Assembly: GCA_010405405.1 (NCBI GenBank)
Contig: MU004241.1
Coordinates: 1,089,359 to 1,153,358 of the forward strand
Source of the DNA: Microthyrium microscopicum
Lineage: Eukaryota
Length of the DNA stretch: 64,000 nucleotides
Direction: 5' to 3'
Positions within the stretch are counted from its first letter, which is position 1. Every line of letters begins with the position of its first letter. Both the position numbers and the translations under genes were made by a program. A model generated the notes under the pieces. The model saw only the letters and a list, made by a program, of their open reading frames with translations. It was not told the DNA's origin and ran no database searches. Of the stretch, positions 29,995 through 54,318 are shown piece by piece.

Positions 29995-30977
29995 TCAAGC
30001 CAGCGTCAATCTAAACTTGAGCAAGTCCTTCTCAACAATCTCCGTCTTGCGCTTCTCCAACTCCTCCACGTCCCACCGCGCATCCAAATACCGACCAGAC
30101 AAATACTCCCTCTTCTCCTTCGTCAACCAAACCGCAAAGCTACCCGCCAGCTCCACATGATCAATCAGTACTATCTCGATTAGCCACTTTCCCATTACAA
30201 TCCTCTTCGGGACTTACACTTCTCCCACCCCTTCCCCTCCGGCACATCCGCCAAATCCGTATCGACACCACCCGGCTGCAACGCATACGCAACGACACCC
30301 TTACTCTTATGCGCCTCATGCACATGCTCCATAAGTCTCGTTGCCGCAAACTTACTCAAACTATACGCTGCCGCCATCACACTTGGATCAATATAATGTG
30401 CCGCCGCACTACTAATCAGCACCACCGCCTTTGCTCCTCCTTCGGTCTGCTCAAGTAACGGTAGGAAGTGGTGGCATTGGACCCACGCGCCCATCACATT
30501 GACATCCATCACCCGCCGAAAGTCCTCGACACTCGCTTCCACCAAATCGCCTGGAAAATCGCGCAGCCCGGTCCGTGGATTGCGTACTAATTTCGTCGCT
30601 GTTCCCGCGTTGATTACTAGCACATCTAACCGTCCATCCAACACTGTTTTTGCGGTGGCTGCGAGGGAGGCGATGTCTGTGTCGGATGTCAAGTCTGCGA
30701 CTGCGACATCTATGCGCGTATTCGGATACTCTGCGCGGAGGGATGCGGCTTTGCTGTCTAATGTGCTTTGCGTTCGGCCGGCGAGGAGGATGTGCGAGGC
30801 GCCGGCTTTGGCGTACGCGGTGGCACAGCCTGCGCCGATTCCGCGGGAGCCGCCGGCGATGAGCACGGTGAAGGGCTTGGGAAGGGTGACGAGGGATGGG
30901 TCGGTGAGGGGATATGGATCGTGGTGGGCGGGACCGCACCAGTTCATTATGGAGGGTTGATTGGAGAGGGCGGACAT
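29995..30977 (-). CDS. Short-chain dehydrogenase/reductase
   Basis: AGGSRGIG, LDVLVINAG, VNVMG, ISS, YSLSK (YxxxK), LQPGGVDTD; intron 30217-30171 joins the C-terminal YLSGRYLDARWDVEEL. Confidence 0.93.
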
Positions 30978-34293: not shown

Positions 34294-35888
34294 ATGTTCC
34301 TCGGCGCAAAGAAGCCGCCCACCAAGACCGTCAAGGTTGCCGTTAAGAAGGACCAGAAAAATCCTCAGACGGACGCCAAGGGGCTCAAGAATAAATCTTC
34401 ACAGGCGCCTCTGCGTAAGACTGGAAGTGGCCAAAATCTTGCCGTCCGTCGCGTCGCTTCCCCAGCATCCTCGGTCGCGTCCGCTTCAAAGTCGCAGCAG
34501 TTCAATAATCTTGCTCCACCACAACGGAACTTGAAGCGCAAGCTGGGGTCGCCAGCTTTCCAGCAATTCAGCTCAGATTCGGATAGCAACGAAGAGGATG
34601 CTGAAGTGCTGTCTAACAAGCGGCCAAGGTCGAGCTCGGAGACGGCTGTCGATAATACCACAGACTACAAGCGCCAACCGTTCAAGGTCGAGGCCGTGGA
34701 AGACATCGACGACAAGAACGAACTTATTCTTCGATGTGCAGATGTGATTGACGAGTATTACAAGGACTACAAATCTGCATTTGACGATGTCACGGACACA
34801 CCAATGATAAAGCTGCAATTTCCCAGCAACTATCGTTCCGAAAGGTAAGCTGAGATCTTCCAGTATTGCCAATGTCATTCTAACCACGATGCAGATATAA
34901 ACTTCTTATTCCTAAAGAAAGTAGAAAATATGAGCCCATCAGTGATGTAGTGGCAACCATTGACATGATCTGTAAACATTACCTCCCGGAGGGATATGTA
35001 ACGAAGCAATTGGAAGGCTTGGCACCCGCTGGAAACACCGCCGATTTGAACTTTAAGCTCGTGTCGGCAGCCAGGCAGCGATCCGCTCAAAAATTCACTG
35101 AAGCTGTGGAACTTTTCAACCGAATATTAAAGGGTGCCATGGTAGATGGTGTTGTGGCAAGCACAATCACGGACCAGAAGTCTATCGATATCAAACTTGT
35201 CGAATGCATACTCAACCAGATCTATTGGCGTACTGTTCTTCCGGATCAGAAACTCCTGGCGAAGTACGAAAATGGCACCTCCGAGATCTACGGCGAAATC
35301 CTTCCTATATTCGGCCACGAAATTTTCAAACTGACCGGCCTCCGTTCCGACCATGTTTTCATTGATCTTGGTTCCGGCGTCGGTAACCTTGCTCTCCAAG
35401 CTGCTCTCGAGTTTGGCTGCGAAAGCTGGGGAATTGAGCAAATGAAAAATCCTGCCTCTCTGGCGCGCAAGCAAGTCAAAGAATTCAACGCGCGCTGCAA
35501 GCGCTGGAGCATCAAACCAGGCAAGGTGACCTTGCTCGAAGGCGACTTTCTAGCCAGCCCTGAGATTGACGCAGCCATCCCGCGTGCAGATGTAATCGTT
35601 ATCAACAACAAAGCATTTTTACCTGAGCTCAATGCCGCGATCGCGTTAAAATTGCTTGACGCTCCCGAAGGCTGTCGCATTGTGAGTCTTAAGAGTTTTG
35701 CACCCGATAATTGGGAGCTCAAGTCATTCCGTCTCCATGATACACGCAATGTGCTTCGATCGGTCAAGAAACAGTACTGGTCTCGCTGCGTCAGCTGGTC
35801 AGACGAAGGTGGTGATTATTACATAGCGACAAAGGATACATCCCAATTGCGTAAATTTGATGAGCAGGAGAATAGCAAGAGAAGATAA
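34294..35888 (+). CDS. DOT1: Histone H3-K79 methyltransferase
   Basis: Basic low-complexity N-terminus; intron 34845-34894; YENG…IYGE, FIDLGSGVGN, LQAALEFGCESWGIE, EGDFL, INNKAF, IVSLKSF, VSWS. Confidence 0.95.
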
Positions 35889-36149: not shown

Positions 36150-37274
36150 TTATTCGGGTCCGATGTACACACGGCAGTTACCCATCAAGCGCTCTTCCTT
36201 ACCCTCATGTGTCATGGTCTTGAACTGGTCGAAGTCATAGTACGCCTCGACGTCCATTTTGTCAGTGGTCTTGATCTCACCGTAGTCAGTGCAAGCACCT
36301 GGAGAAGCAATGTGAACACCCCCGAAACTTCCACCATGCGAATGTTGAGGCTCAGGGCTTCGACGGGCCACTGCACCAGTTTGCTTGGCCTTTTGGATCT
36401 TGCCATCAATGTCGTAGTACATGACTGAATCGCAGGCAGTCTTGCCGTTGATGAGAAGCTTCAAGTTGGTGCCACCATCGTGCATGTGGCCTATCGAAAA
36501 TAATCAGCAATCTACACCTTGTGATCAAGCCCGGATGGATTCTTACCGATCGTGTACAGCAGCTTTCCGTTAACACCCGCACTCATTGGAATCATGCCCT
36601 TGTACACCTTCTTACCCGGCTCTGGCATCGGGTACGCAATCTGCAGCCACTTCATCGTCGCGCCCTTGTACTTCTTTCCCATCTCGCTGTCCTTGGGAAT
36701 CCACTCATACGTGATGGCCATCGACACATCCATTGGCGCCTTCGCCTCGCTCATCAAGTCAACGGTGTAGAACATGCTCTTGCCCGTAAACTCGAGCCCG
36801 TACTTGTGTTGGCTGTTGAGCCGGATTGTTGGACGCTCGTTGCCAGCTGCCCAGATGACACCTAGCGGTGTGTTGCCGAGCACGGTGTGATGTAGCCACG
36901 CACCTTCGGACGTGAGGGCTTCGGACCCGTTCGTGTATTTGAGTGTCGCACGCATTGCTGTCACCCAGCAGTCGGAGCAGGGTACTTGGGCCATCAGGCC
37001 GGCTTTCGCGATCATCTTTTCGCCCGGGATCGTGTATGGCCCGTACAGAATTTCGGTTCGGGTGGCGCCATCGATGATCCTGTCTTCATGTCAGTATTCG
37101 TCGCTGGAATCGTGTATAAATGAGAACGTACGGCGTCTCGTGCAATGGAGGAATGATACGTTCGCCTTGAGGCGCATTAGCATAAGAGCCATTGGCCTGA
37201 AGCTGGAAATCTAAAGGAGAGGCATTGGCGGCAAGCGCTAACGAAGCAACTGAAAAGAGTGTCGATGTCTTCAT
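36150..37274 (-). CDS. Secreted hypothetical protein with a His/Met pattern resembling copper type II (PHM/DBH-like) monooxygenases
   Basis: Signal peptide MKTSTLFSVASLALAANA; introns 37131-37080 and 36546-36491; YGPY, PCSDC, GAWLHH, GNER, G|HMHDGG, CDS, LMG. Confidence 0.8.
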
Positions 37275-38309
37275 AATGATGATTAGCAATGGTTACAAAC
37301 TGTGGCTCAGAGACAGTGTAGCAACAAGACAGCTTGAGGCAGGTACATATACCACACACACATATTGGTTTGTTGCGTCCATTGGGTAGTGTTATATTGA
37401 TTTTGATTAAAACAGGTCAGTAAGATATCTGCCACGCCATATGCGTGGCTATTACAACGCGTCAAGTATGGTTCATGTGCGCCTTCACAGGGCAGTTCCA
37501 TGTTCAATTCTGTTCCTGCATCGTAGAATTTATCCGATAGTGCATTAGTGTGCTGTGTGCAGTGGATCTCTACCGGGTTTCTGCCATAGATCGAGCAAGA
37601 TTTCCGATCAAATACAGTTAAGTTAATATGGCTAGGACCGCAGCCTTGGTCGTGACATGAAGCTGTTCGATCGGGCCTAGAAGAGCGAAATGACCGAGGT
37701 GTGGTTTTCTTTTCTACCTTCATGGAGCACGGAGATCTTTTGAGGCCCTGGGATTGGAGCTTACTCGATATTTTCGCTATGGTTGAAGTTGATAGACTCA
37801 TTCTCAACATATTGAAAAACAGGCTCGAGTTTCTTTTGTATCATTTTTACATATTTGACAATGATAAATGAATGGTAGGACAGTTTGTAGATATAGAACA
37901 TTAGCACACACGTTTTGGATCTGGAAACTGAAAATCGTACCTACGCCATAGATTAATATAAGTGTAACATGAAGGACAGGCCCCTTTACAGGTCAAAAGT
38001 CATATTTTCACAACCTAGAGTATTGCTCATATATTGATTTCGTCCAGAGACTAACTTCCTATATTGAATGAGGCTAGACCTGCTATGATCATATCTCCGA
38101 AAATTATCAAAACAACTCGAATTGATCTTCAGTCACTTCGTACTCGAGCTGACGTACCCGAAGTACTAACTCACAATGGCTTCTGATCATTCGTCACCTG
38201 TTTCGCATCATTCGATGGCCGATACAATCAGATACCTCTGCGAAAACGAACATGACGACGGTCAGATAGTCTTCTATGAAGATTGTTCAACATGGCAGCA
38301 TATACAATG

Positions 38310-38604
38310 TGACAGAAGGTTCGTTCCAAACCCTGGATCCGCGCTAGTCCTGATCTAGGATTAGGAAGCGAAAACACTAAAATTCGGCCTCTATTAGCTA
38401 TTATATTTTTTTGCCTTTTCTACTCCTTTCTATATATTACTTTTGCCTCTATTATAGCCTAAATTCTAGGCTTTAAGAAGATATGTTTTATATCTTTAAT
38501 AAGGTATAAATATCATAGTTATTATAGTAATTAATTAATTAGATTTTTTAATATTCTTTTTACTAATTTTATATTCTCTAAGCTATATGGATTATATTTT
38601 ATTA
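38310..38604 (+). repeat. 5' LTR (295 bp)
   Basis: Colinear with 45329-45623; the differences seen are C>T/G>A. Followed by attataaacc, consistent with a RIP-altered Copia primer-binding site (gttatgagcc). Confidence 0.93.
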
Positions 38605-39770
38605 ATTATAAACCTAGTATTCTAATATATTTTTATTATTTTATTATTTTATATATAAATTTTTTATAAACTATATTATTATAATCTTTTAAATTCTAGC
38701 TATTACTATATACTAATTTTAATATTAAAACTTAATATTTAGGTTATAGATTAACTTATAATATTGCTTCTAAAGTTATAATTATTACTAAAGCTAGAAC
38801 TACTATTTAAAGCTACTACTTTTTTAGAATAGAATTAAGAAGTACTTTACTTTATTTATTTCTTTTTATAGCAACTTATACCTCTCTTTATTACTTTATT
38901 ATTTATAATATTTATTTAAATTATTAGGAAGTAATAAGAGAACCTTACTATATTATTTAATAATAAGAAAGAGTAAGGAATTAGTAAATTAAATTAGGAA
39001 ATTACTTAAAGAAGTAATTCTATAAACCTTAGAGGTATAAATATCTTTTTATTTTCTTTTCTCTTTTTTTTCTTTTTCTCTTTTTTATTATATACTTTAA
39101 GCTTTATGCTTTTATTAATACTCTTCTTATTATATTTAGTATTTATATAATCTTTATTATTAAGCTCCTAGCATATTCTTAATCTTAATAGTTCTTTAAA
39201 AGCTATTACTTTTTTAAACTCTTAGTATATTAATAGTCTTAGTATTAATAATACTAGAATACGTTAATAGCCTTAATATTTATAGAGGTAAAGCATAAGT
39301 AATACTTCTTACTATTTTTAGTTATTATCTAGTTCTCTAGTCTTTAATAATTCTTTTATTACTATTACTTCCTTAACTTTAAGAACTTAACTACTAATAG
39401 TTCTTATCTTTAAAGACTTAACTTTTTTATTATCTTAGTACGCTAATAGCCTTAGTATTAATAGTACTAGATAATACCTTCTAACTCCTTAATAGTAACT
39501 ATATTATTATACTTACTACTTTCTTTCTTATAGACTTAAGCTACTAAGTAGGTCTCTTAAAAAAACTTATTATTAGTATTATATAAACTACTATTATTAT
39601 TCCTTAACTTTAAGGACTTAACTTTTTTATTACCTTAGCTATAATAGTACTAAAATTTATATTACTTTTAAGTATATTCTAAATTCTTATAGAATATTAT
39701 TAGTAATTCTACTATTATTAATCTAATCTTAGTACTTTAGTTTAGGCTTAGTATACTATAACTAGAAAGT

Positions 39771-39889
39771 ATATTTAGTAAAAATATATAAGTATCTAAT
39801 TATTCTATATTCTATTCCTAAGTAGAGCAAAAGAAATATTTAGTAAAGATATATAAGTATCTAATTATTCTATATTCTATTCCTAAGTA
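39771..39889 (+). repeat. Tandem duplication (65-bp period) in the retroelement leader
   Basis: atatttagtaaa(a/g)atatataagtatctaattattctatattctattcctaagta occurs at 39771 and 39836. Confidence 0.85.
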
Positions 39890-42800
39890 AAAAGATATAA
39901 TACTAAGCCTAAATTACTTAAAGAGGAAATCTAAGAAGCTTAAAGGATATAAATATCTTTCTTTCCTTACTTATTCTTCTTTTCTTCTTCTTTTTTCTTT
40001 ATACTAAAGTAGTATCTTCTAAATAAAGGTATAGAGATACTAAGGTAATATCTCTTAAATAGAGTAACGATTTGCTAAAAGTACCTATTATAAGCTTATG
40101 TATACTTTTTCTAAATAAACTTAATATAAATTGCTTAAATAAGTAATCTTTTAATCCCTAGGGGTATAAAATATTTTTTTTTTTTTCTTCTCTACTTCTT
40201 CTTTTTCTTCTTCTATATACTAAGATAGTTCCTCTAAATTAGAGGTATTTCTAAAATAGCCTACTAAGCTAAAAGAATAAGCTATAGTAACTTAATATAG
40301 TAATAGTGTTTCTATCTTCTAATTAGAGTAATATTAAAGATATTAGTCCTTATAGAAAGCTAGGTATTATTCTTAAGTATACTATATAAACTTTATAGAA
40401 AAATTATCTAAAATAGTAATTACTAAAGATCTTTCTATAGTAGTTATATTAAAGAATAGTAATAACTAATATACTTAGATTAACTCTATAAAATAGTAGG
40501 TATACGCTTTAGATATATAAGATTATATTAATTTAGAAGGAACTAGTTCTCTTCTAAAAGAACTAGTATACTTATCTAAAATATACCTAGTAGAACTTAT
40601 TATTTCTTAAGTATCTATAAAGAATAATAAGGATTAACTTACTTAAATAGTAAAGTTAATTCTTATTTAAGAATATAATATTTTATTATAAATATATAAT
40701 TTAGACTACTAAGAGTACTAAGATACTAAAAATGCTATAATTAAGATTAATAACTTTTTAAATAAGATAATATCTAAAAGTCTTTAGAACTATATTACTA
40801 ATATCTTTAAGGCTTAAAATATACTCTAAGTACTTTAGAAAGATATTTATTCTTTCTAAACTAGTATAATCTTAAAGCTAAATAAAGAATTTAATACTTT
40901 AAGGAAGAGGTATAAATAGTAAGAACTATAACTCTAGCTAACTTATTAAATATTTCTTTAAAGAGAAAGTTCTTTTTATAATAAGAATAGAATTTTTAAG
41001 AAATAGCTTATAAATACTTTTATAGACGCTACTTAAGTTTCCTACTTTAGTATTTAGATATAGTTTACTTATTATTATATAGAAGGTAAATAACTTATCC
41101 TTTTAGAGTATATTAAGAAGTATTAGACTATCTATAGTAAGGAAACTATACTAGTATTATAATCTAGTATTACTTTTACTACTACTCTTAATAAAAAGAC
41201 TTAAGAAGAGATATTTTAACCTAAGAAAACTTTTTTAATTATAAATACTTATTAACCTTTCTTAACGTTTAAATTATAGAGTTCTTAAAAGAATAAAAAG
41301 ATAACTCCTTCTTACTTTTATAGTAAAATAAAATTTTATAATAATTACTTCTATCTTTAACTTAATAAACGTCTAAATAAATAGTATCCTAACCTTAAAG
41401 TAAAAGCTAAAGTTAAGAAAAGCTTTAAGAATTTTATACTTAAAGCTAAAGTTAATTATATTCTTTAAAAAGAGTAAAAATAAGAGTATAATAATAATAA
41501 CTAACTACTTAAACTAATTAAATATATAGATATTAAAATAGTAGTTATAAAAGTTATAATATTTATAATAATTAAGATATTTTTTAATAAAAAGTTTATT
41601 CTAAATTCTAAAGTAGATATATATATTTATAATAATAGATTCTACTTTAAGATATATAAGAGTATTTCTAGTTTTTTAATCTATAGTAGAGTTTCTTTAT
41701 AGGTTATAGAATATAGTAATATAGATATTATTATTTTAAGCCCTAAAGAATATTAAATAGTTACTCTCTATAACGTTACTTATATATTTAGCTTCTATAA
41801 GAATTTAGCTTCTTATTATAGAATAAAAGCTATAGAATATTGCTAGAATAATAAAATAGGCTAGATTAAATACGTTAAAATAAGAAAGCTTCTAACTAAG
41901 ATTATCTCCTTTAATGTTTACTTCTTCTTTAAAAATAATTCTTACTATACCTTCTTTATAATATTATTACTTTCTCGCACTTCTATAGCTTCTATATCTA
42001 AATAGTACTAATGAATAAGTTATATTAATAAAGCTATAGTATTTTATATAAAATATATTACTAAAGGTATAAAAATTACTTTAAACGTTACTTCTTTTAG
42101 AAATACTAAAGATAATAACTATTTCTATAAAATCTATATTAAAATAAAGTAGAAGAAATAGATTTCTTATTAACTAATAAATTTAGGCTTAAAGCCCTTT
42201 AAGAAGCTTTATATTAATCTAATTTAGGTTAAGAAAGGCTATAATAATAATTACTAGATTATTTATATTTACTATACTATTATGAAGTTCTATCTACTAA
42301 AAACACTTCTTTAGAAGATATAAAAGAACTATATTTAATTTCTACACTACGTATTTACTATTATTAAGAATATAAGTTACAAAGTAAATAATATTAAATA
42401 TAAGGTCCTTTAAATCTATAGAGATTATAAAGCTATAATAAGTAAGAAGTAAGATAATAAGATCTAGCTAAATAGCATTATTAAAGAACTATCTATACCT
42501 TATACTGCTTTATAAAATAGTTCTATAGAAGTATTAAGACAAATCCTAATATCTATTATAAGAGTACTAAAATAATATAATAGCTTTCTAGATACGTTAT
42601 AGCCTAAACTTGCTTACTTAGTAGTCTATCTATTTAATAAAATTCTAAAGAAGTAGCTAAACTAGAGAATACCCTTTAAGATAGTATTTAAATAAGTACT
42701 AAATCTCTTATTAGTCTAAATTATTAGCTTAAAAACCTATATTTATAATCCTAACATTCTAAAGCTTAAAAAGCTTTAATCTCGCTTAATTAAAGGTTAG

Positions 42801-45328
42801 TTAATAAGTTATACTAGAAGTAATATCTTTAGAGTCTAGATTCCTTTAAATAACTATATTATTAAAGTACGAAATATTATAATTAATAAAACTATTAAAT
42901 TTAACGCTACTACGCTTACTATAATTAATAACTAATCTACTAATGCACCTCTAGACATACTACTCTCTTATCTTAAAATAAACGTTAGTAGTAGTATATT
43001 TAACCTATAAGAAGCTAAATAATAGCTTAATTAAAATTAAGGAGTATAGAATAATTAATAGTAAGAATAAGATAGCTATTAGACTTCTAAAAACAATTCT
43101 AATTAACCTATATTTAACGACTAGCTAATAACGCCTAATCCTATACTATTACTATTATCTTAGCCTTCTTTATAATATCTAATACTCTCTATAAGTCTAT
43201 TACTTACTTAAGATTATACTAAATTAAGAGAGGATACTTTAAAAAATCCTACTCTTATAATTTTACTAATACTACTATTAACTATTCTAATAGCTTATCT
43301 AAAATAGTAATATATTACTAAGTACGAATAAGAAATCTAAGCTTCCTAAAATATCTTTATACGTATTATAAGAAGTAGTTATATTCTATAATTCTTAAGG
43401 ATTACTAATCTAGTACTCTATAAACCTTACCCCCTTATCTTATTATATTATATATTTTTTATAGCTTTAGTTTAATGCTACTATAAAAGAAATATACTAG
43501 AATTACTAAAAACGTAGTTTAAAATAATAAAACGCTCTAATTAAGACTAATATCTTTTAGCTACTAGAATTAAAATTAAAATACTTTAGGAATAAGGTAT
43601 ATTTAAAAAGGTCTATACTCCTTAAACTAATAAGCTTATTCTACTCTTAAAGTAGGTATTCTTAGAGAAGTACAATTTAAATAGCTTTCTTCTTAAATAT
43701 AAGGCTAGAATCTATATAAAAGAAGATCTATAGTATTAAAATCTAGAACTAAAGATTTATACTATTACTAAAGCTTATTATATATTACGTATAATTTTTA
43801 TATTAATAGCTATATTTAATCTAGATCTTTACTAATTTAATGCTATAAATACTTTCCTAAATACTATTCTAGATAAAATAGTTTTAATTTAATGCCCTAA
43901 AGGCTTTAATATTCTTAGAAAGGTTTTACTACTTTACTACGTTTTCTATAAACTACTAAGATCTTTATTACTATAGTATTAAAATATAAGAGCTACCCTC
44001 TATATAATAAAGTTTAAGTTTATTCTAAAAGACTCTTATCTCTTTAAATATATTTAGTATTCTATCTTTTTCTTTTATTATATTAATAATTTTTTTCTTT
44101 TCTTACTAAAAGTATATTAAGTAAAAATAGATAAAATAAAATATAAACTTAGTATATACTATGCTATAAAGAATTTAGGTACTCTAAAAAACTTTCTTAA
44201 TATTTAAATACTTTAAAATTAAGCTAATTAAAAGCTCTAAATTTTATAAAACTAGTATATTAATAAAATTAGCGCTAAATTCTAGCTTAATATTATAAAG
44301 AAGACTAAATACATTATTCTTATTTTAAATCTTATTAAACTTATTCTAAATAAAGAATAAGTATTTAAAGATTAGATCTACGCCTTCTAAATACGTTATA
44401 GCTTTATAATCTATTTTATAATAGTATATAGGCTAAATATCTATTATATAGCCTCTTATTTAAGCTACTTTAACTAGAATCTTTCTAAGCTTTACTATTA
44501 TAAGATTAAGAGAACTATTCTATATCTTTAAGTAATAAAATACTTTATGCTTAAGTATTATAGAACTACTAAAGTACTTACTATTAGTAAAGAAGTATTT
44601 CTTATAGCCTATAATGCTATATTTATAAATAATTAAGAGACTTAAAGATTAACCTAGGGCTTTTTATTTAACCTATTTAGAGAACTTATTAGCTAGTAAT
44701 CTTTACGCTAGAAGATAGTCTTAATATCTATAATAAAAGTAGAACTTTTATTCTTTTTAAACGCCTTAAAAGAGCTAATCTTAATCTAACGTCTCTTCTT
44801 ATAACTTAAGTTTAATCCTAATATTAAAATACTAATATTAAATAATAATACCTAAATAGTAAGTATTATAATAAAGTAGGCTTAGCTTTTATCTTCTAGA
44901 TTAAAGTATATTAATATATATTAATTCTAGCTTTATTAAGAAGTTATAGAGAGCTATATCTCTATTAAATAGGTTTTTATAGGTAAGATACTAGTAGATA
45001 ATTTAATAAAAGCTTTCTCTTTATAAGAATATAAGAAGTTTAGAAAGATACTAAATTTAGTAAATATAGAGTACTTAATACTAGCTTAAGAAGATTCTTT
45101 CTAAAATGCTATAAATACTTTTACTACTATTATAAATTACTAAATCTTCTATATTTATATATAAGCTAAATTTCCTATACTAGAGCTACTTAATAGTACT
45201 CTTTATTTCCTATTTTAACTAGTTTTAATATTTTAGTAGCTTAGTCTTAGAAAACCTAAAAATTAATATTTCTTTATACTTAATACTAAGTATATCTTAA
45301 GATCTATAGGTTAGAAACTTAAGGAGTA

Positions 45329-45623
45329 TAATAGAAAGTTTATTCTAAACCCTAGATTTGTACTAGTCTTAATCTAGGATTAGGAAGTAAAAATACTAAA
45401 ATTTAGCTTCTATTAGCTATTATATCTTTTTACCTTTTCTACTTTTTTTTATATATTACTTTTACCTCTATTATAGCCTAAATTCTAGGCTCTAAGAAGA
45501 CACGTTTTATGTCTTTAATGGGGTATAAATACTATAGTTATTATAGTAGTTAGTTAATTAGATTCTTTAATGTTCCCTTTACCGATTCTGCATTCCTTAA
45601 GCTGCACGGACCGTATTCCGTCA
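45329..45623 (+). repeat. 3' LTR (295 bp)
   Basis: Starts taatagaaagtttattctaaacc (vs tgacagaaggttcgttccaaacc in the 5' LTR) and ends ccgtattccgtca; preceded by purine-rich aaggag (degraded PPT). Confidence 0.93.
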
Positions 45624-46263
45624 CAATGCTATTACCCAGGGTCCCAGATACACAAGTCCCTGATGTTTACTGATGCGTCGTTTGTGTTCCTAGATCGTTT
45701 GATACAATCGCTGCTATTCAACGACAGCATGAATTCCTCTTCTCTGTAGCAAGTCTTCAAACTACTTCCTATTGAGCAATGTTAAAGGAATGGCGTTGCG
45801 TCTTCCGGTACGACAAAGACCTTATCCTGGATGCTCAGTCAAACGACGCTGGATTATGTAGAATACGTTTGAACTCAAAGCCAAGCTTGATGGTTGAACT
45901 GAAGGACAAAATGAATGGCATACTCCCATCCATTACGATATCTCCCATAGACCTCTATGAAGGGTACCAAATATGTTCTTATCCTCGCCGCTACTTTGTA
46001 TAATTTTCTGAGAATCAGCAACAGACCTGGAAAGCCAACAACATTCTTTGTCTTACAACTTCTTGAAAGAAAACAGGGAGTTGCACGTAGACGGTCTGGA
46101 ATTCTGCATGGCAGCCTGTTGGGGGCCAAAATGCTGTGCCTCCCTTTGGCATTGTCTGACCGGACGTCCGCCAGTTGACTAACCCCGCCTTGATACCTTA
46201 TGCATTCACTTTGATATAACTTTATCATCCTCGAAGCGGATTCTGAGTTGAGAATTATTCAAT

Positions 46264-47602
46264 ATGAGTGGCTCCAAGGAGACTCCGCTAGACGATGCTT
46301 TTGAGCACATTGACAGGGCTTGGAACGACGACGACGAATTACTAGATGACCTCGACTACAGCGTTGTCAGCCTAACAAAGGATAATTCACCAGCAGACTC
46401 CGAAAGCAAGGGAGAGTCTGGAAAGGGAAAGAACAAAGTCGACGACGATATGCAGTCCATCAATTCCGAGTCAACAACCACTTCCGACCTTCTCGATGTT
46501 GATGTTGACCCAGCAGTGCTTCTATCAAGCGTTAGTGCACTGGTGTCAACACTAGAAGAGCTAGTTAGCAGTATAGGCAAGCTTCGCGAGAAGCATACCG
46601 CGCCAGGACTGGACGAACTAAGCAGTACAGCCCATGAGATATTTCTTCAGTTGTCAGAACTGGAACGCATTGCTTCATCCTACGCTTCGACAGACAACAA
46701 CCCTTTTCAGCCTAGTAACGAAAGAAGCATAGATCCTGCCGTTCTCAAATGGACTCACAATGTTCAACTGTGTCTATTAGAGTTACATGCCAAGGCAGAT
46801 ACCCTTGCCACAAGGTCGTCTATGTCATCGGATGCTGATTTCATGGACGACGCAATAACCATTCAGGAGACAGATGATGTGAGTTTAGCAGAGACTTTAG
46901 CCAGTATCAGAGCCGAAAGTATTATCGAATGGACTTCTTATGATGCTCGATTGAAAAGTTTCAAAGAACGGATGGAGAATATTTTGCCAATACTTCAAGC
47001 GTATGTTACATATCATTTTGCTCAAGATACACAGACTGATTTGGCGTAGTGATCTCAATTCATACCACACTTCCAGAATAGCTTTTGTCAACCAAGACAA
47101 TGAAGAGTGTAAGAAAGCAGACAAAATGCTACCAGTCTTGCGCAACCGCCTCTACAACCTAAAGGACACCCTCAACAACCTCCACAAAATCTTTCTAAGC
47201 AAAGGAACCAACGGTCAGATGGTCGTTGAAAGATTCGAAGTATTAGCATTCTCCGAGGTAGATATAGGCGATATTACCAAAGCGCTCTCCGTCTATCTCA
47301 GCAATCACGGCTCCGATTGGCTCAACAGCCTGCTCTCAGGAGGCCTCTCGTTTTCAGAGTTCAGGAGCCTTGATATATCATACGTCAACGAAGTCGAGCA
47401 AGACATGGTCGAGTGGGGAAACGAAATATGTCGTGAGGTAGCTTCAAAAGACACGCCTCGGCTCGATATCTCGAAAAAGTCTTTCATACCGTTGGTCACA
47501 AATCGCAAGCAAAACGCAAACAACATGTCTGAATTCGCTGAGATGCTACCGTATCGACTGGAGAGACTGGCAGAGCTCAAACAGCTATTGAAGGTGGACT
47601 GA
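46264..47602 (+). CDS. Hypothetical, predominantly helical protein
   Basis: Two long ORFs joined in frame by intron 47001-47049 (GTATGT…CTGAT…TAG); acidic N-terminus followed by amphipathic helices. Confidence 0.75.
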
Positions 47603-51402: not shown

Positions 51403-54318
51403 ATGTCTGTTAACCGTCCAACCGACGTTAAATTCAAGGAACAAGACGTAAACAACAAACTCCAAGCATATGGCATCTATTCTGCTTTTGCTAAAGGCAA
51501 AGCTCCATCAGTAAGTCTCGCGCCCTCGTGGTCATCGCATCCCGAGCGCGAACCCATATTATCTGGCGCATGTTGTTCTGACATCATCGACCCTACAGAA
51601 CAAACAAATAGATGTCGCTCTAAACAGCGCCCTTGCCTCAAAGGCACTCACTTCGCCTCCTGAGAAGCTCTCTGATGAGGGCAAGAAGTTGGTTGGTGAC
51701 GTTCGCGAGGTTATTGAGCAAGCCAAGCTTTTGCTTCTTTCCAAGAACTCGGGAAATCTTCTTCAAGAGTTCATTTGGGAGACCCAGCAAATCACCGCTG
51801 GTGATGCCGCTCTACCTGGTGCGCCTGTTGACAAGGACACTGCCAAACAACACGGCAATGAGGCGCTTGAAGGTCTTCGTACCCTTGGAACGCTAGTCAT
51901 TAGCAACGGCCAATTCCGTAAACTTCGTATGTTCTACCCATTGCCATACTCGCGCCATAGTCTAACTCTCAATAGTCAGCGATGCTGCAATCCTCATGCG
52001 CTCAATGGCTGGTGACGCCGCTACGAACGCCGCGCAAAAGGTCTCCCCTGATGAGGAGAAGCTAGCTCAAATTGATCAGCCAGCCGAAGATAATACATGG
52101 CACGAGGTTCCCGAATTCAACAAGGATCAACTCAAATCCAAGATTCCTTTTGGCAAGAAAGATGTCAAGGACGTTGCCAACGCTGGCACCGCTGCTGCCC
52201 ACCCCGACGGATCCACTGATCCTGCTGATACCGCTAATCTCGCCGCTCATGAGCAACAAACTGGAGAACAAACTGGCATCAATGCCGCTGGTGGTGCCGA
52301 TGCTGCCGGCTCTGCTCTCAACCAGAAACTAGACGAAAAAGCCCCTGAGGCTAAGGGCAAGGTTAAGAACAAGGCCAAGGAATATAATGCCCGCTCCCAG
52401 AATTACCTCAAGGGTAAGATGCCAAAGGAGCGACGAGAGCAAACCATCTGGCGGTTGAAGAAGATGGTAAGAAATCCAACCTGATGATTGGAATTTGTGC
52501 TAACATTTTATCAGATTGTTGAAGTTCAAGGCCATGCTGATTGTATGCGAATCCATCCCCACTAAAAACCAAGGCTTACCAGAATAGATCAACGCGCGAT
52601 CGAAACACTCTTGAACCTTGCAGAGACGTATACCGGTCATACAAAGTCTCTAGCAACACAAGGTCAAGGAACCATCAAAGGTGCCCACACTGACGATAGC
52701 TTGAAAACTGCGGAAGCTAACTTGAAGGTACTATCTAGAATTCCATGCTAAAAGTCTGCCTGCGCTGACAAATCTTAAGACACTCCTCGAGCGCTTTGCC
52801 AATGGCACTAGCTCAGACGATTTCTTCGATTCGCTCAACCAGATTTACCGCGATGCGGATTCTGACCCAGAACTCAAAGGCTGGTTTAAGGACGTTGATG
52901 CGTATATCCGCCGCTGCTTGCTCGAGACTGGTTACATCATCCAAGATCAGAGCAATGATGACTTCAACGCTCTATACGACAAAGGCCAGTATCTGCTCCG
53001 CAACAAATACAAGACCCACACCGATCGAATTTTCGACGAGATCAAGTACTTTGGCAACCAATTCGATGCTGATGCGCAAAACACGGCATTCGGAAATGCT
53101 GTACAGAAGCTCTTCCTTGATCTTGGCAATGACGAGACTGGACGATCCACCTTCAAGCCACATCTTCTTAAGGATGTGACAGAAACAATCTTGCCTCTGG
53201 CTCTTGCAAGTGCCCACTATATTCCAATTCCTCGTTTGGAGTACTCCGATCCAATGGTTGATCTCATTGTTGAGAACTTGATCATCGAATCTGATAACCT
53301 GACCCCCAATGTCTTTGAACTCGGCTCAGACAACCACTTCAAGTGGGGACGTACTTCTGCAAATAAGAGCAGCAACAAGAACAAGGTCATGCTTGCAGTT
53401 TCAGGGGTTCAAATGGATCTCCGCGATGTCAGCTTCTATGTCAACAAGAAGGAAGGTTTCCCAAGCATCAAGGACCAAGGTCTATGCGACATCTTCATGG
53501 GCGGAGATGGTTTCAGCTTCAAGATTGGCATGGAAACCGCTGACAAGACTGACCGAGGTCACTTTTTCAAGGTTAACACTGTCAACGTCGGTGTCAAGAA
53601 CTTCAACATCAAGCTCAAGCAATCCAAGCACAAGTTCTTGTTCGCACTTGTCAAGCCACTCATCCTACGCGCCATGCGACCTGCGCTCCAGAAGGTTCTT
53701 GAGCAAGTCATCAAACAAAAGTTCCACGAACTTGACGGCATTGCTTATGAGATCCACCAAGAAGCTCAAAAGGCTAAGCGTGATGCCAAGGCCAATCCCG
53801 ACCCAGAGAACCTCAAGAACATGTATCAGCAATATTTCTCCGCCGCCCAGCGCCGTATGACCCAGGCCAAGCAAAAGAAGGAGAAGGTCCAAGCGTCCAT
53901 GGAGAAGAAGAAGTTCAACGCCGCCATGACCCAGCATGACTCCATCTTCCCCGACATTACTCTCACGTCTGGCATCTCCACCAAGGCAACCGAGTACAAG
54001 GAACTTGCCGCCAAGGGTGACCGCTGGGAGAGCCCCGTCTTCTCGATTGGCAGCGCCAGTGAGAGCACCAACATCCCCGCCGCACCTCAAGTCACCCGCA
54101 AGAGCATGGGTAAGAGCACCGGTGCCATCGGCGCTACTGGCACTCACAACGGTCCTTTGCAGGACTCCACTTATAACGCTGTATCTAACGGATTTGCCAA
54201 CGGTGCCAACTCCAACGGTGTCAATCACCCTGCTCTTGGAAGCAACGCTGTTGCTGGTCCCGGCGCTCCTGGCTTCGGTGCTCAGGTTGACCGCGCATTC
54301 GACCCTACTAGAGTCTAA
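51403..54318 (+). CDS. HAM1/DUF5923-DUF4449 family protein (BPI-like lipid-binding fold; S. pombe SPAC32A11.02c-like)
   Basis: Multi-exon gene (about 5 introns). MSVNRPTDVKFKEQDVNNKLQAYGIYSAFAKGKAPS|NKQIDVAL, LSDEGKKLV, KMPKERREQTIWRLKKM, YIPIPRLEYSDPMVDLIVENL, WESPVF. Confidence 0.85.

Follow-up and report, generated by a model that had tools for sequence, protein, structure and literature searches.

A putative PHD-finger gene relic split by a RIP-degraded LTR retrotransposon in Microthyrium microscopicum

We describe a locus of Microthyrium microscopicum (GenBank assembly GCA_010405405.1, contig MU004241.1, positions 1,089,359 to 1,153,358 of the forward strand) at which a long terminal repeat (LTR) retrotransposon, heavily altered by repeat-induced point mutation (RIP), sits inside what is almost certainly a gene for a PHD finger of the PHD_5 type. 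The whole stretch of 64,000 nucleotides is called the window below, and all coordinates are counted from its first letter. Several of the most conserved codons of the split gene, among them those of two zinc ligands, carry C:G>T:A changes, and the origin of these changes is the main question of this work.

The locus

The window is ordinary fungal DNA with a guanine-plus-cytosine (GC) content of 44–56%, except for a single low-GC block at about 38.3–45.6 kb. This block, 38310–45623 (7,314 bp), has a GC content of 0.19–0.27 (about 20%), against 0.44–0.52 in its flanks. It begins and ends with direct repeats of 295 bp each, identical at 239 of 295 positions; the 56 differences are all transitions, with no transversions and no gaps. 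The outer ends of the pair are TG and CA, and directly outside them stand two copies of CAATG. Terminal direct repeats, TG...CA ends and a target-site duplication (TSD) of 4–6 bp are the marks of an LTR retrotransposon; all are present here, the TSD being 5 bp long, and this is the anatomy of the block.

Six sequencing runs bear on the locus. X1–X4, from one sample, contain the stretch, and X5 and X6 are from one other sample, with shares of 0.09 and 0.07. X1 is probably the sample behind the assembly of the window, hence not independent of it. The principal features are as follows.

38310..45623, + strand: RIP-degraded LTR retrotransposon, probably Ty1/copia-like (LTRs, TSD, GC content, RIP indices, multiple copies in run X1)
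38310..38604, + strand: 5' LTR, starting with TG, its 3' end RIP-mutated (direct repeat)
45329..45623, + strand: 3' LTR, ending with CA, its 5' end RIP-mutated (direct repeat)
38305..38309, no strand: left TSD copy CAATG, directly outside the 5' LTR
45624..45628, no strand: right TSD copy CAATG, directly outside the 3' LTR
38176..38309, + strand: 5' part of the putative PHD-finger pseudogene, 44 codons from the ATG plus nucleotides 1–2 of the Cys6 codon (PHD_5, PDB, family profile, homologue P0001)
45629..46003, + strand: 3' part of the putative pseudogene, completing the PHD finger (homologous as far as 45751), followed by a tail without homologues and a TAA at 46001–46003 (P0001, family profile)

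In run X1 the flank of another copy of the element, unrelated to the flank in the window, begins directly after 45623. Read by eye, a purine-rich AAGGAG precedes the 3' LTR (45300–45328), and no tRNA-complementary primer-binding site is recognisable after RIP in 38605–38640. The 1.7 kb that follow the 5' LTR (38605–40300) are filled with internal direct repeats, one of 81 nt in three copies and others of 63, 54 and 49 nt in two copies each. This region has no protein match and is an unusually long leader for an LTR element.

The split gene

The insertion site, CAA|TG+C, falls in the Gln-Cys codon pair of the motif WQHIQC. Read from the ATG at 38176, the left piece has 44 codons and its last residues are WQHIQ. 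By itself it gives Pfam matches to PHD_5 (expectation value (E) 9.6e-4, 19.6 bits, cut-off 27) and PHD (E 0.014, 15.9 bits, cut-off 24). Its best match in the PDB is the PHD finger of MLL5 (E 3.7e-4), and those of ASH1L, PHF20 and SET3 are found as well. An exhaustive search of 1.84 billion representatives yielded three true relatives, P0001 (E 1.9e-10) and P0002 and P0003 (both E 1.2e-6). One further protein, P0004 (704 residues, with a repeated Cys-rich unit), matches the left piece with E 2.3e-5; it has no PHD pattern and was kept out of the alignments.

Residues 1925–1963 of P0001 correspond to 38185–38310 and residues 1961–2001 to 45629–45751: the two segments adjoin in the protein, and in the DNA 7.3 kb lie between them. 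On the join made by excising the element, one high-scoring segment pair with P0001 spans the junction, with a summed tblastn E of 1.9e-16.

A profile search with the three relatives returned 45 proteins, and those that bear a name are all fungal hypothetical proteins (Rhizodiscina, Aspergillus sclerotialis, A. lentulus, Verticillium). Many of these relatives are annotated with PF20826/PF00628; P0002 and P0003 carry both. The family profile was built from 45 complete domains of 41 proteins, the window sequence not included; five of 46 relatives (P0027, P0028, P0043, P0046 and P0047) have no complete domain with 20 residues after Cys8 and were left out. Against this profile the join of the two pieces, unrepaired, scores 66.7 bits over positions 2–62 of 66 (left piece 37.0, right piece 8.6), and the six frames of the 64-kb window hold no second site. 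Chance resemblance to a PHD finger is rejected on this score and on the clean six-frame control. From the sequence, the splitting of a PHD_5-type finger gene by an LTR element is virtually certain.

Beyond about 45751 the tail has neither a Pfam match nor a homologue. A second PHD finger suspected there by eye (RCVF...DAG...RIRL) finds no support from tblastn or the family profile. A word-based homologue search with the 44-residue left piece gave no candidate with three shared words, nothing scored in a near-homologue search with the 114-residue right piece, and no close orthologue is on record in the databases searched with both pieces. P0001 itself, 2,111 residues long, ends in three near-identical tandem units of 108 residues (residues ~1826–2111), made of a PHD finger and a charged helix-like tail. 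These units could come from a recent tandem duplication or be an artefact of assembly or gene model.

With the PHD_5 and PHD fingers of MLL5, SET3 and ASH1L (PF20826, PF00628; PDB 4l58, 2lv9, 8vld, 5tdr) the sequence shares the pattern xCxC-x4-DDG-x4-CxxC-xxWQHxxC...CxxC. It differs from them by Tyr at Cys1 and Cys3, a stop, a frameshift and the 7.3-kb insertion. The fungal subfamily as a whole is set apart from MLL5, SET3 and ASH1L by a further invariant His, placed two residues ahead of Cys7, and by a PRxxDxxxAxERQ tail.

RIP of the element

DNA affected by RIP has a TpA/ApT ratio above 0.89, a (CpA+TpG)/(ApC+GpT) ratio below 1.03 and a positive composite RIP index (CRI). In the element these stand at 1.41–1.78, 0.01–0.28 and +1.13 to +1.72, respectively; the background medians are 0.67, 1.30 and −0.62, with a 95th percentile of 0.10 for the CRI. 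All three indices, together with a divergence made of transitions only, place the element among RIP-affected repeats. Taking C or G as the older state, the LTRs are changed at 18 of 18 CpA, 17 of 20 CpG, 13 of 44 CpT and 8 of 28 CpC sites. In run X1, 2,480 contigs match the stretch at a likeness of at least 80%, nearly all of them on the element, and they differ by transition at 1,099 places vs 22 by transversion. The element is multi-copy and RIP-mutated.

The changes are unevenly spread over the LTRs. In the 5' LTR the private changes are confined to LTR positions 98–294, with none at positions 1–97; those private to the 3' LTR lie at positions 2–136, plus 205 and 269, which makes two in positions 205–295. 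RIP is strongly polar within both repeats: the inward-facing part is mutated and the outer ~90 nt are almost untouched.

Lesions in the gene

Departures of the excised reading from the family or from an open frame are as follows.

38233..38235, + strand: Cys1 reads TAC (Tyr); Cys in 45/45 domains and in MLL5 and ASH1L; one TpG>TpA step from TGC
38266..38268, + strand: Thr column reads ATA (Ile); Thr in 43/45 domains, Ile in 2/45; one CpA>TpA step from ACA; Ile may be natural here
38275..38277, + strand: Cys3 reads TAT (Tyr); Cys in 45/45 domains; one TpG>TpA step from TGT
45647..45658, + strand: one base is missing somewhere in this zone (−1 frame change), which belongs to the loop of variable length from Cys6 to the invariant His; frame 0 up to YYPGSQ, the other frame from PDV
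45668..45670, + strand: family-invariant His before Cys7 reads TAC (Tyr); His in 45/45 domains; one CpA>TpA step from CAC
45671..45673, + strand: in-frame TGA between the invariant His and Cys7; column variable in the family (E, K, R, C, others); an origin from CGA would take one C>T step
45773..45775, + strand: second in-frame TGA, in a region without homology

Six of the eight zinc ligands (Cys4-His-Cys3) are kept, Cys1 and Cys3 being Tyr, and the frame is not open because of the TGA codons, the frameshift and the insertion. With Tyr at two ligands, a stop, a frameshift and 7.3 kb of foreign DNA, the copy in the window would be unable to fold as a PHD finger; its sequence marks it as the remnant of a PHD gene and not as a functional member of the family. 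The X1 contig over 45553–47500 crosses the frameshift zone with no differences and no gaps. Past the second TGA, a tail of 75 codons is still open.

Sixteen columns are conserved in at least 43 of the 45 domains; the window keeps 12 of them and alters four. All four altered columns are single C:G>T:A steps at CpA/TpG, and none is of the transversion type. The ancestral state is here taken from protein relatives, not from an orthologous allele.

The original prediction had placed the CAATG duplication on the Gln-Cys codon pair of WQHIQC, which is borne out (38305–38309 and 45624–45628), and had called the gene a PHD finger, as the 66.7-bit score of the unrepaired join to the 45-domain profile and the one relative aligned continuously over the junction now attest. 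Its excised reading is exactly as written, with Tyr TAC, Tyr TAT, ATA, two TGA stops and a 1-nt frameshift. The two missing cysteines, each said to be one TpG>TpA step from TGC or TGT, are Cys in 45/45 relatives at both positions, and by eye also in the five relatives left out of the profile. The change of the invariant His is additional to that account. Where ATG had been expected in place of ATA, the closest family gives another answer: Thr in 43/45 and Ile in 2/45, Met being found in the more distant PHDs of MLL5 and ASH1L. Among the relatives left out, this column is Ile in P0027 and Met in P0047.

ATA makes up 8 of the 13 Ile codons of the pseudogene (5 of 7 in the far tail), vs 20% in the 14 long open reading frames (ORFs) of the window (p 0.0014). 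This excess could reflect the odd codon usage of a young gene or a diffuse C>T and G>A change.

Search for element-free alleles

Contigs of X1 cover 36500–38338 and 45553–47500 with no differences; the left one runs only 29 letters into the element. No contig joint that skips 38310–45623 occurs in runs X1, X5 and X6, and an exact 29-mer of the left flank has no match in metagenome contigs. X5 matches parts of the flanks with no differences, and the PHD codons are not among them.

The matching X5 contigs, at 2.5–5x, are identical to the flanks at 36519–36865, 37420–37578, 46015–46243 and 46511–46736, in a sample labelled as a different organism from that of X1. It seems that the organism of the window, or a very close strain, is present at low abundance in the X5 sample.

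Origin of the lesions

The best single explanation of the Tyr-for-Cys and Tyr-for-His changes, to which we give a probability of roughly 0.55, is a light spill-over of RIP from the element into the gene. On this account, an LTR retrotransposon, probably Ty1/copia-like, integrated between the Gln and Cys codons (WQHIQ|C) in a small fungal gene of ~169 codons with one PHD finger of the PHD_5 (MLL5/SET3) type, duplicating CAATG and cutting the finger between His5 and Cys6. RIP drove the element, a member of a multi-copy family, to ~20% GC, and its intensity drops sharply across the last ~90 nt at the outer end of either LTR. The insertion, the RIP of the element and this drop are shown by the sequence. 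The gene halves would then have gained a few C:G>T:A changes up to ~150 nt from the junctions (Cys1>Tyr, Thr>Ile, Cys3>Tyr and invariant His>Tyr), about a tenth of their CpA/TpG targets being struck. Both TGA stops are possibly C:G>T:A changes of the same episode, and the single 1-nt deletion probably arose independently. Cys (TGY) and His (CAY) codons contain the dinucleotide that RIP prefers and both become Tyr when hit, so that ligands would come to read as Tyr.

The case for spill-over lies in the conserved codons. One sign of leakage, C:G>T:A change at RIP-preferred dinucleotides with respect to the ancestor, is seen in four of the four altered conserved columns. We enumerated all non-synonymous single-base changes of the 16 conserved codons, under mutation spectra that are our own assumptions. 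The probability that four of four are C:G>T:A at CpA/TpG is then 1.2e-4 for a uniform spectrum, 3.9e-3 for an AT-biased one and 1.8e-2 for a strongly AT-biased one; that four of four are C:G>T:A in any context, it is 3.5e-4 to 5.3e-2 across spectra. An LTR pair with no transversions and no indels in 295 positions leaves little time for ordinary drift after the insertion: by our own arithmetic at most ~0.55 hits would be expected in the 16 codons, and the probability of at least four is ~0.003. That 75 codons past the second TGA have stayed open also speaks for spill-over.

Several observations weigh against this reading, beginning with composition. Positive RIP indices in the single-copy flank, the sign of leakage used in PMC9453070, are absent. 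The flank at 38060–38309 has a TpA/ApT of 0.57 and a CRI of −0.71, and the flank at 45624–45873 a TpA/ApT of 0.84 and a CRI of −0.25; both are at background. In the 50-nt windows that adjoin the element, CpA+TpG counts are 10 and 9, vs 7.3 ± 1.9 in the background. Normalised for GC, the gene has a rho(TpA) of 0.80, a value as high in 24% of windows, and a rho(CpA/TpG) of 1.17, which is the mean value; taken by itself, the left piece leans the opposite way from RIP (rho(TpA) 0.56, rho(CpA/TpG) 1.41). Within the domain, 34 of 38 CpA/TpG targets are intact and four changed. The element itself points the same way: at the outer LTR ends 2 of 43 known susceptible sites are mutated, and RIP fades ~90 nt inside each end, leaving the outer ~90 nt nearly unmutated, which means that it stops short of the edge of homology.

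The codon argument has its own limits. About 77% of the non-synonymous C:G>T:A changes at these codons have a CpA/TpG context by codon structure; since Cys, His, Gln and Trp codons carry CpA/TpG by construction, the context adds little to the C:G>T:A direction. Ile at the Thr column is natural in 2/45 domains, and the over-use of ATA extends to the far tail, a hint of unusual codon usage more than of local damage. Identity to the closest homologue is only 51% over the domain. RIP cannot have produced the 1-nt frameshift. Finally, as X1, X5, X6 and the 29-mer search show no element-free or ancestral allele, the lesions may predate the insertion.

All of these observations agree with a uniform light rate of 5–10% across the LTR ends and ~150 nt next to them, and by composition such a rate would be indistinguishable from background. 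The sliding RIP index over the flanks, proposed as a check in the original prediction, came out negative (CRI −0.71 and −0.25 for the left and right flanks, background median −0.62). Of its claim that the gene was lost by insertion plus RIP leakage, the insertion is strongly supported and the leakage stands in part: four of four altered conserved columns are C:G>T:A, yet the flank indices are at background. Sliding indices are powerless against a light spill-over, and it is the analysis of conserved codons that has power.

Next in rank, and in our view unlikely, is ordinary pseudogene decay without RIP: the gene would have been already dead or unconstrained, gathering AT-biased changes and an indel, and the element would have landed in the damage or added to it. 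C:G>T:A is the commonest spontaneous change, and Cys>Tyr and Cys>Arg are the only transitions that alter a Cys codon. Decay would sit well with flanks of background composition, with the frameshift and with the lack of a close orthologue in databases, as expected of a fast-evolving dispensable gene; the ATA codons (8 of 13 over the whole gene including the far tail, vs 20%; p 0.0014) would also suggest an odd usage throughout the gene, not damage at the junctions. It accounts poorly for four of four changes at conserved columns being C:G>T:A (p 3.5e-4 to 5.3e-2), for none of the transversion type at 16 such columns and for a 75-codon tail that is still open. Decay after the insertion, moreover, has too little time in view of the LTR pair's zero transversions in 295 nt.

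Deamination of methylated cytosines, in heterochromatin spreading from the RIPped, AT-rich element into its flanks, would be a slow after-effect and distinct from RIP proper. In Neurospora, methylation is nucleated by RIPped DNA. Such a process would give the same pattern of C:G>T:A only near the junctions, could do without a premeiotic overrun and would agree with how little RIP there is in the outer LTR ends. It is slow, yet the LTR pair is without ordinary divergence, and we regard it as improbable. Least credible, and very improbable, is that the gene was itself duplicated, as a paralogue or in tandem PHD units as in P0001, and RIPped independently of the element: P0001 does have three near-identical units and the family is large, with many domain architectures, but the window holds a single such PHD and the flank composition is without RIP.

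Should light spill-over of RIP be the cause, it may have a wider bearing. Three of ten conserved Cys/His codons have turned to Tyr, all within 80 nt of the RIPped insertion. Tentatively, at somewhat short of even odds, we suggest that zinc-finger genes are built-in soft targets of RIP, in which a spill-over too light for the indices would knock out the metal ligands first; this locus would then show the process in the act. If true, such damage escapes index-based genome scans, and conserved ligands changed from Cys or His to Tyr would be a more sensitive reporter of leakage.

Class of the element

Pfam scans of the whole 2,437-residue frames of the element, in six frames with stops as X, gave nothing at E ≤ 1. 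When the + strand was cut into tiles of 300 and 120 residues, three sub-threshold Pfam matches appeared, in one shared frame and in the order Pol_BBD, SH3_retrovirus, RVT_2.

41625..41826, + strand: weak match to Pol_BBD (PF22936), E 0.1, 13.3 bits, cut-off 27; coordinates from tile residues 205–272
42732..42899, + strand: weak match to SH3_retrovirus (PF25597), the domain after the integrase core, E 2.2e-5 (1.1e-4 in the other tiling), 24.7 bits, cut-off 27
44118..44291, + strand: weak match to RVT_2 (PF07727), the copia-type reverse transcriptase, E 0.018, 15.1 bits, cut-off 31.6

A YVDD-like YYINN, read by eye from the translation, starts at 44076. The gypsy-type RVT_1 has no match at E ≤ 10 in the Pfam scans of the element, and gag, rve and RNase H have no Pfam match in its six whole frames or its + strand tiles. 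An integrase end upstream of an RVT_2-type reverse transcriptase is the Ty1/copia order, and the element is likely, not proven, to be of this class. It shares with Ty1/copia elements (Pfam RVT_2, rve, SH3_retrovirus, Pol_BBD) the 5-bp TSD, the TG...CA LTRs and the order of Pol_BBD, SH3_retrovirus and RVT_2 in one frame; it differs in that its three domain matches are all under the Pfam cut-offs and in the 1.7-kb repeat-filled region after the 5' LTR. The label Copia that it had first been given is weakly supported by these three collinear matches.

Neighbouring genes

The PHD gene has, 2.3 kb upstream, an intact gene with a DOT1 histone H3K79 methyltransferase domain (34965–35885, + strand; Pfam DOT1, E 6e-59). 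Farther away are a short-chain dehydrogenase gene (30198–30977, − strand) and a HAM1-like gene (53254–54315, + strand). The open frames beside the element, 36515–37015 (− strand) and 46264–47599 (+ strand), have no Pfam match.

Comparison with known systems

The locus is a clean, fully delimited example of fungal gene loss, in which a transposon insertion was followed by RIP. It also calls for caution in annotation: ORF finders do not see the gene, which comes to light only on excising the element. What was lost is one member of a large and variable family of PHD-containing hypothetical proteins. The loss probably matters little, and existing knowledge of RIP and of PHD fingers stands unchanged.

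Overrun of RIP into single-copy DNA is documented for the AT-blocks of Leptosphaeria maculans (PMC3105345) and for Cladosporium fulvum (PMC9453070). Leakage from RIPped transposons is well described, and the present locus is a new instance of a known process. There, as here, a heavily RIPped transposon abuts single-copy coding DNA with C:G>T:A changes and premature stops. The two studies call leakage by RIP indices in single-copy windows; here the indices are negative and the case is made by four conserved codons. A further difference is that the gene is physically split here, so that leakage is not needed to explain its loss.

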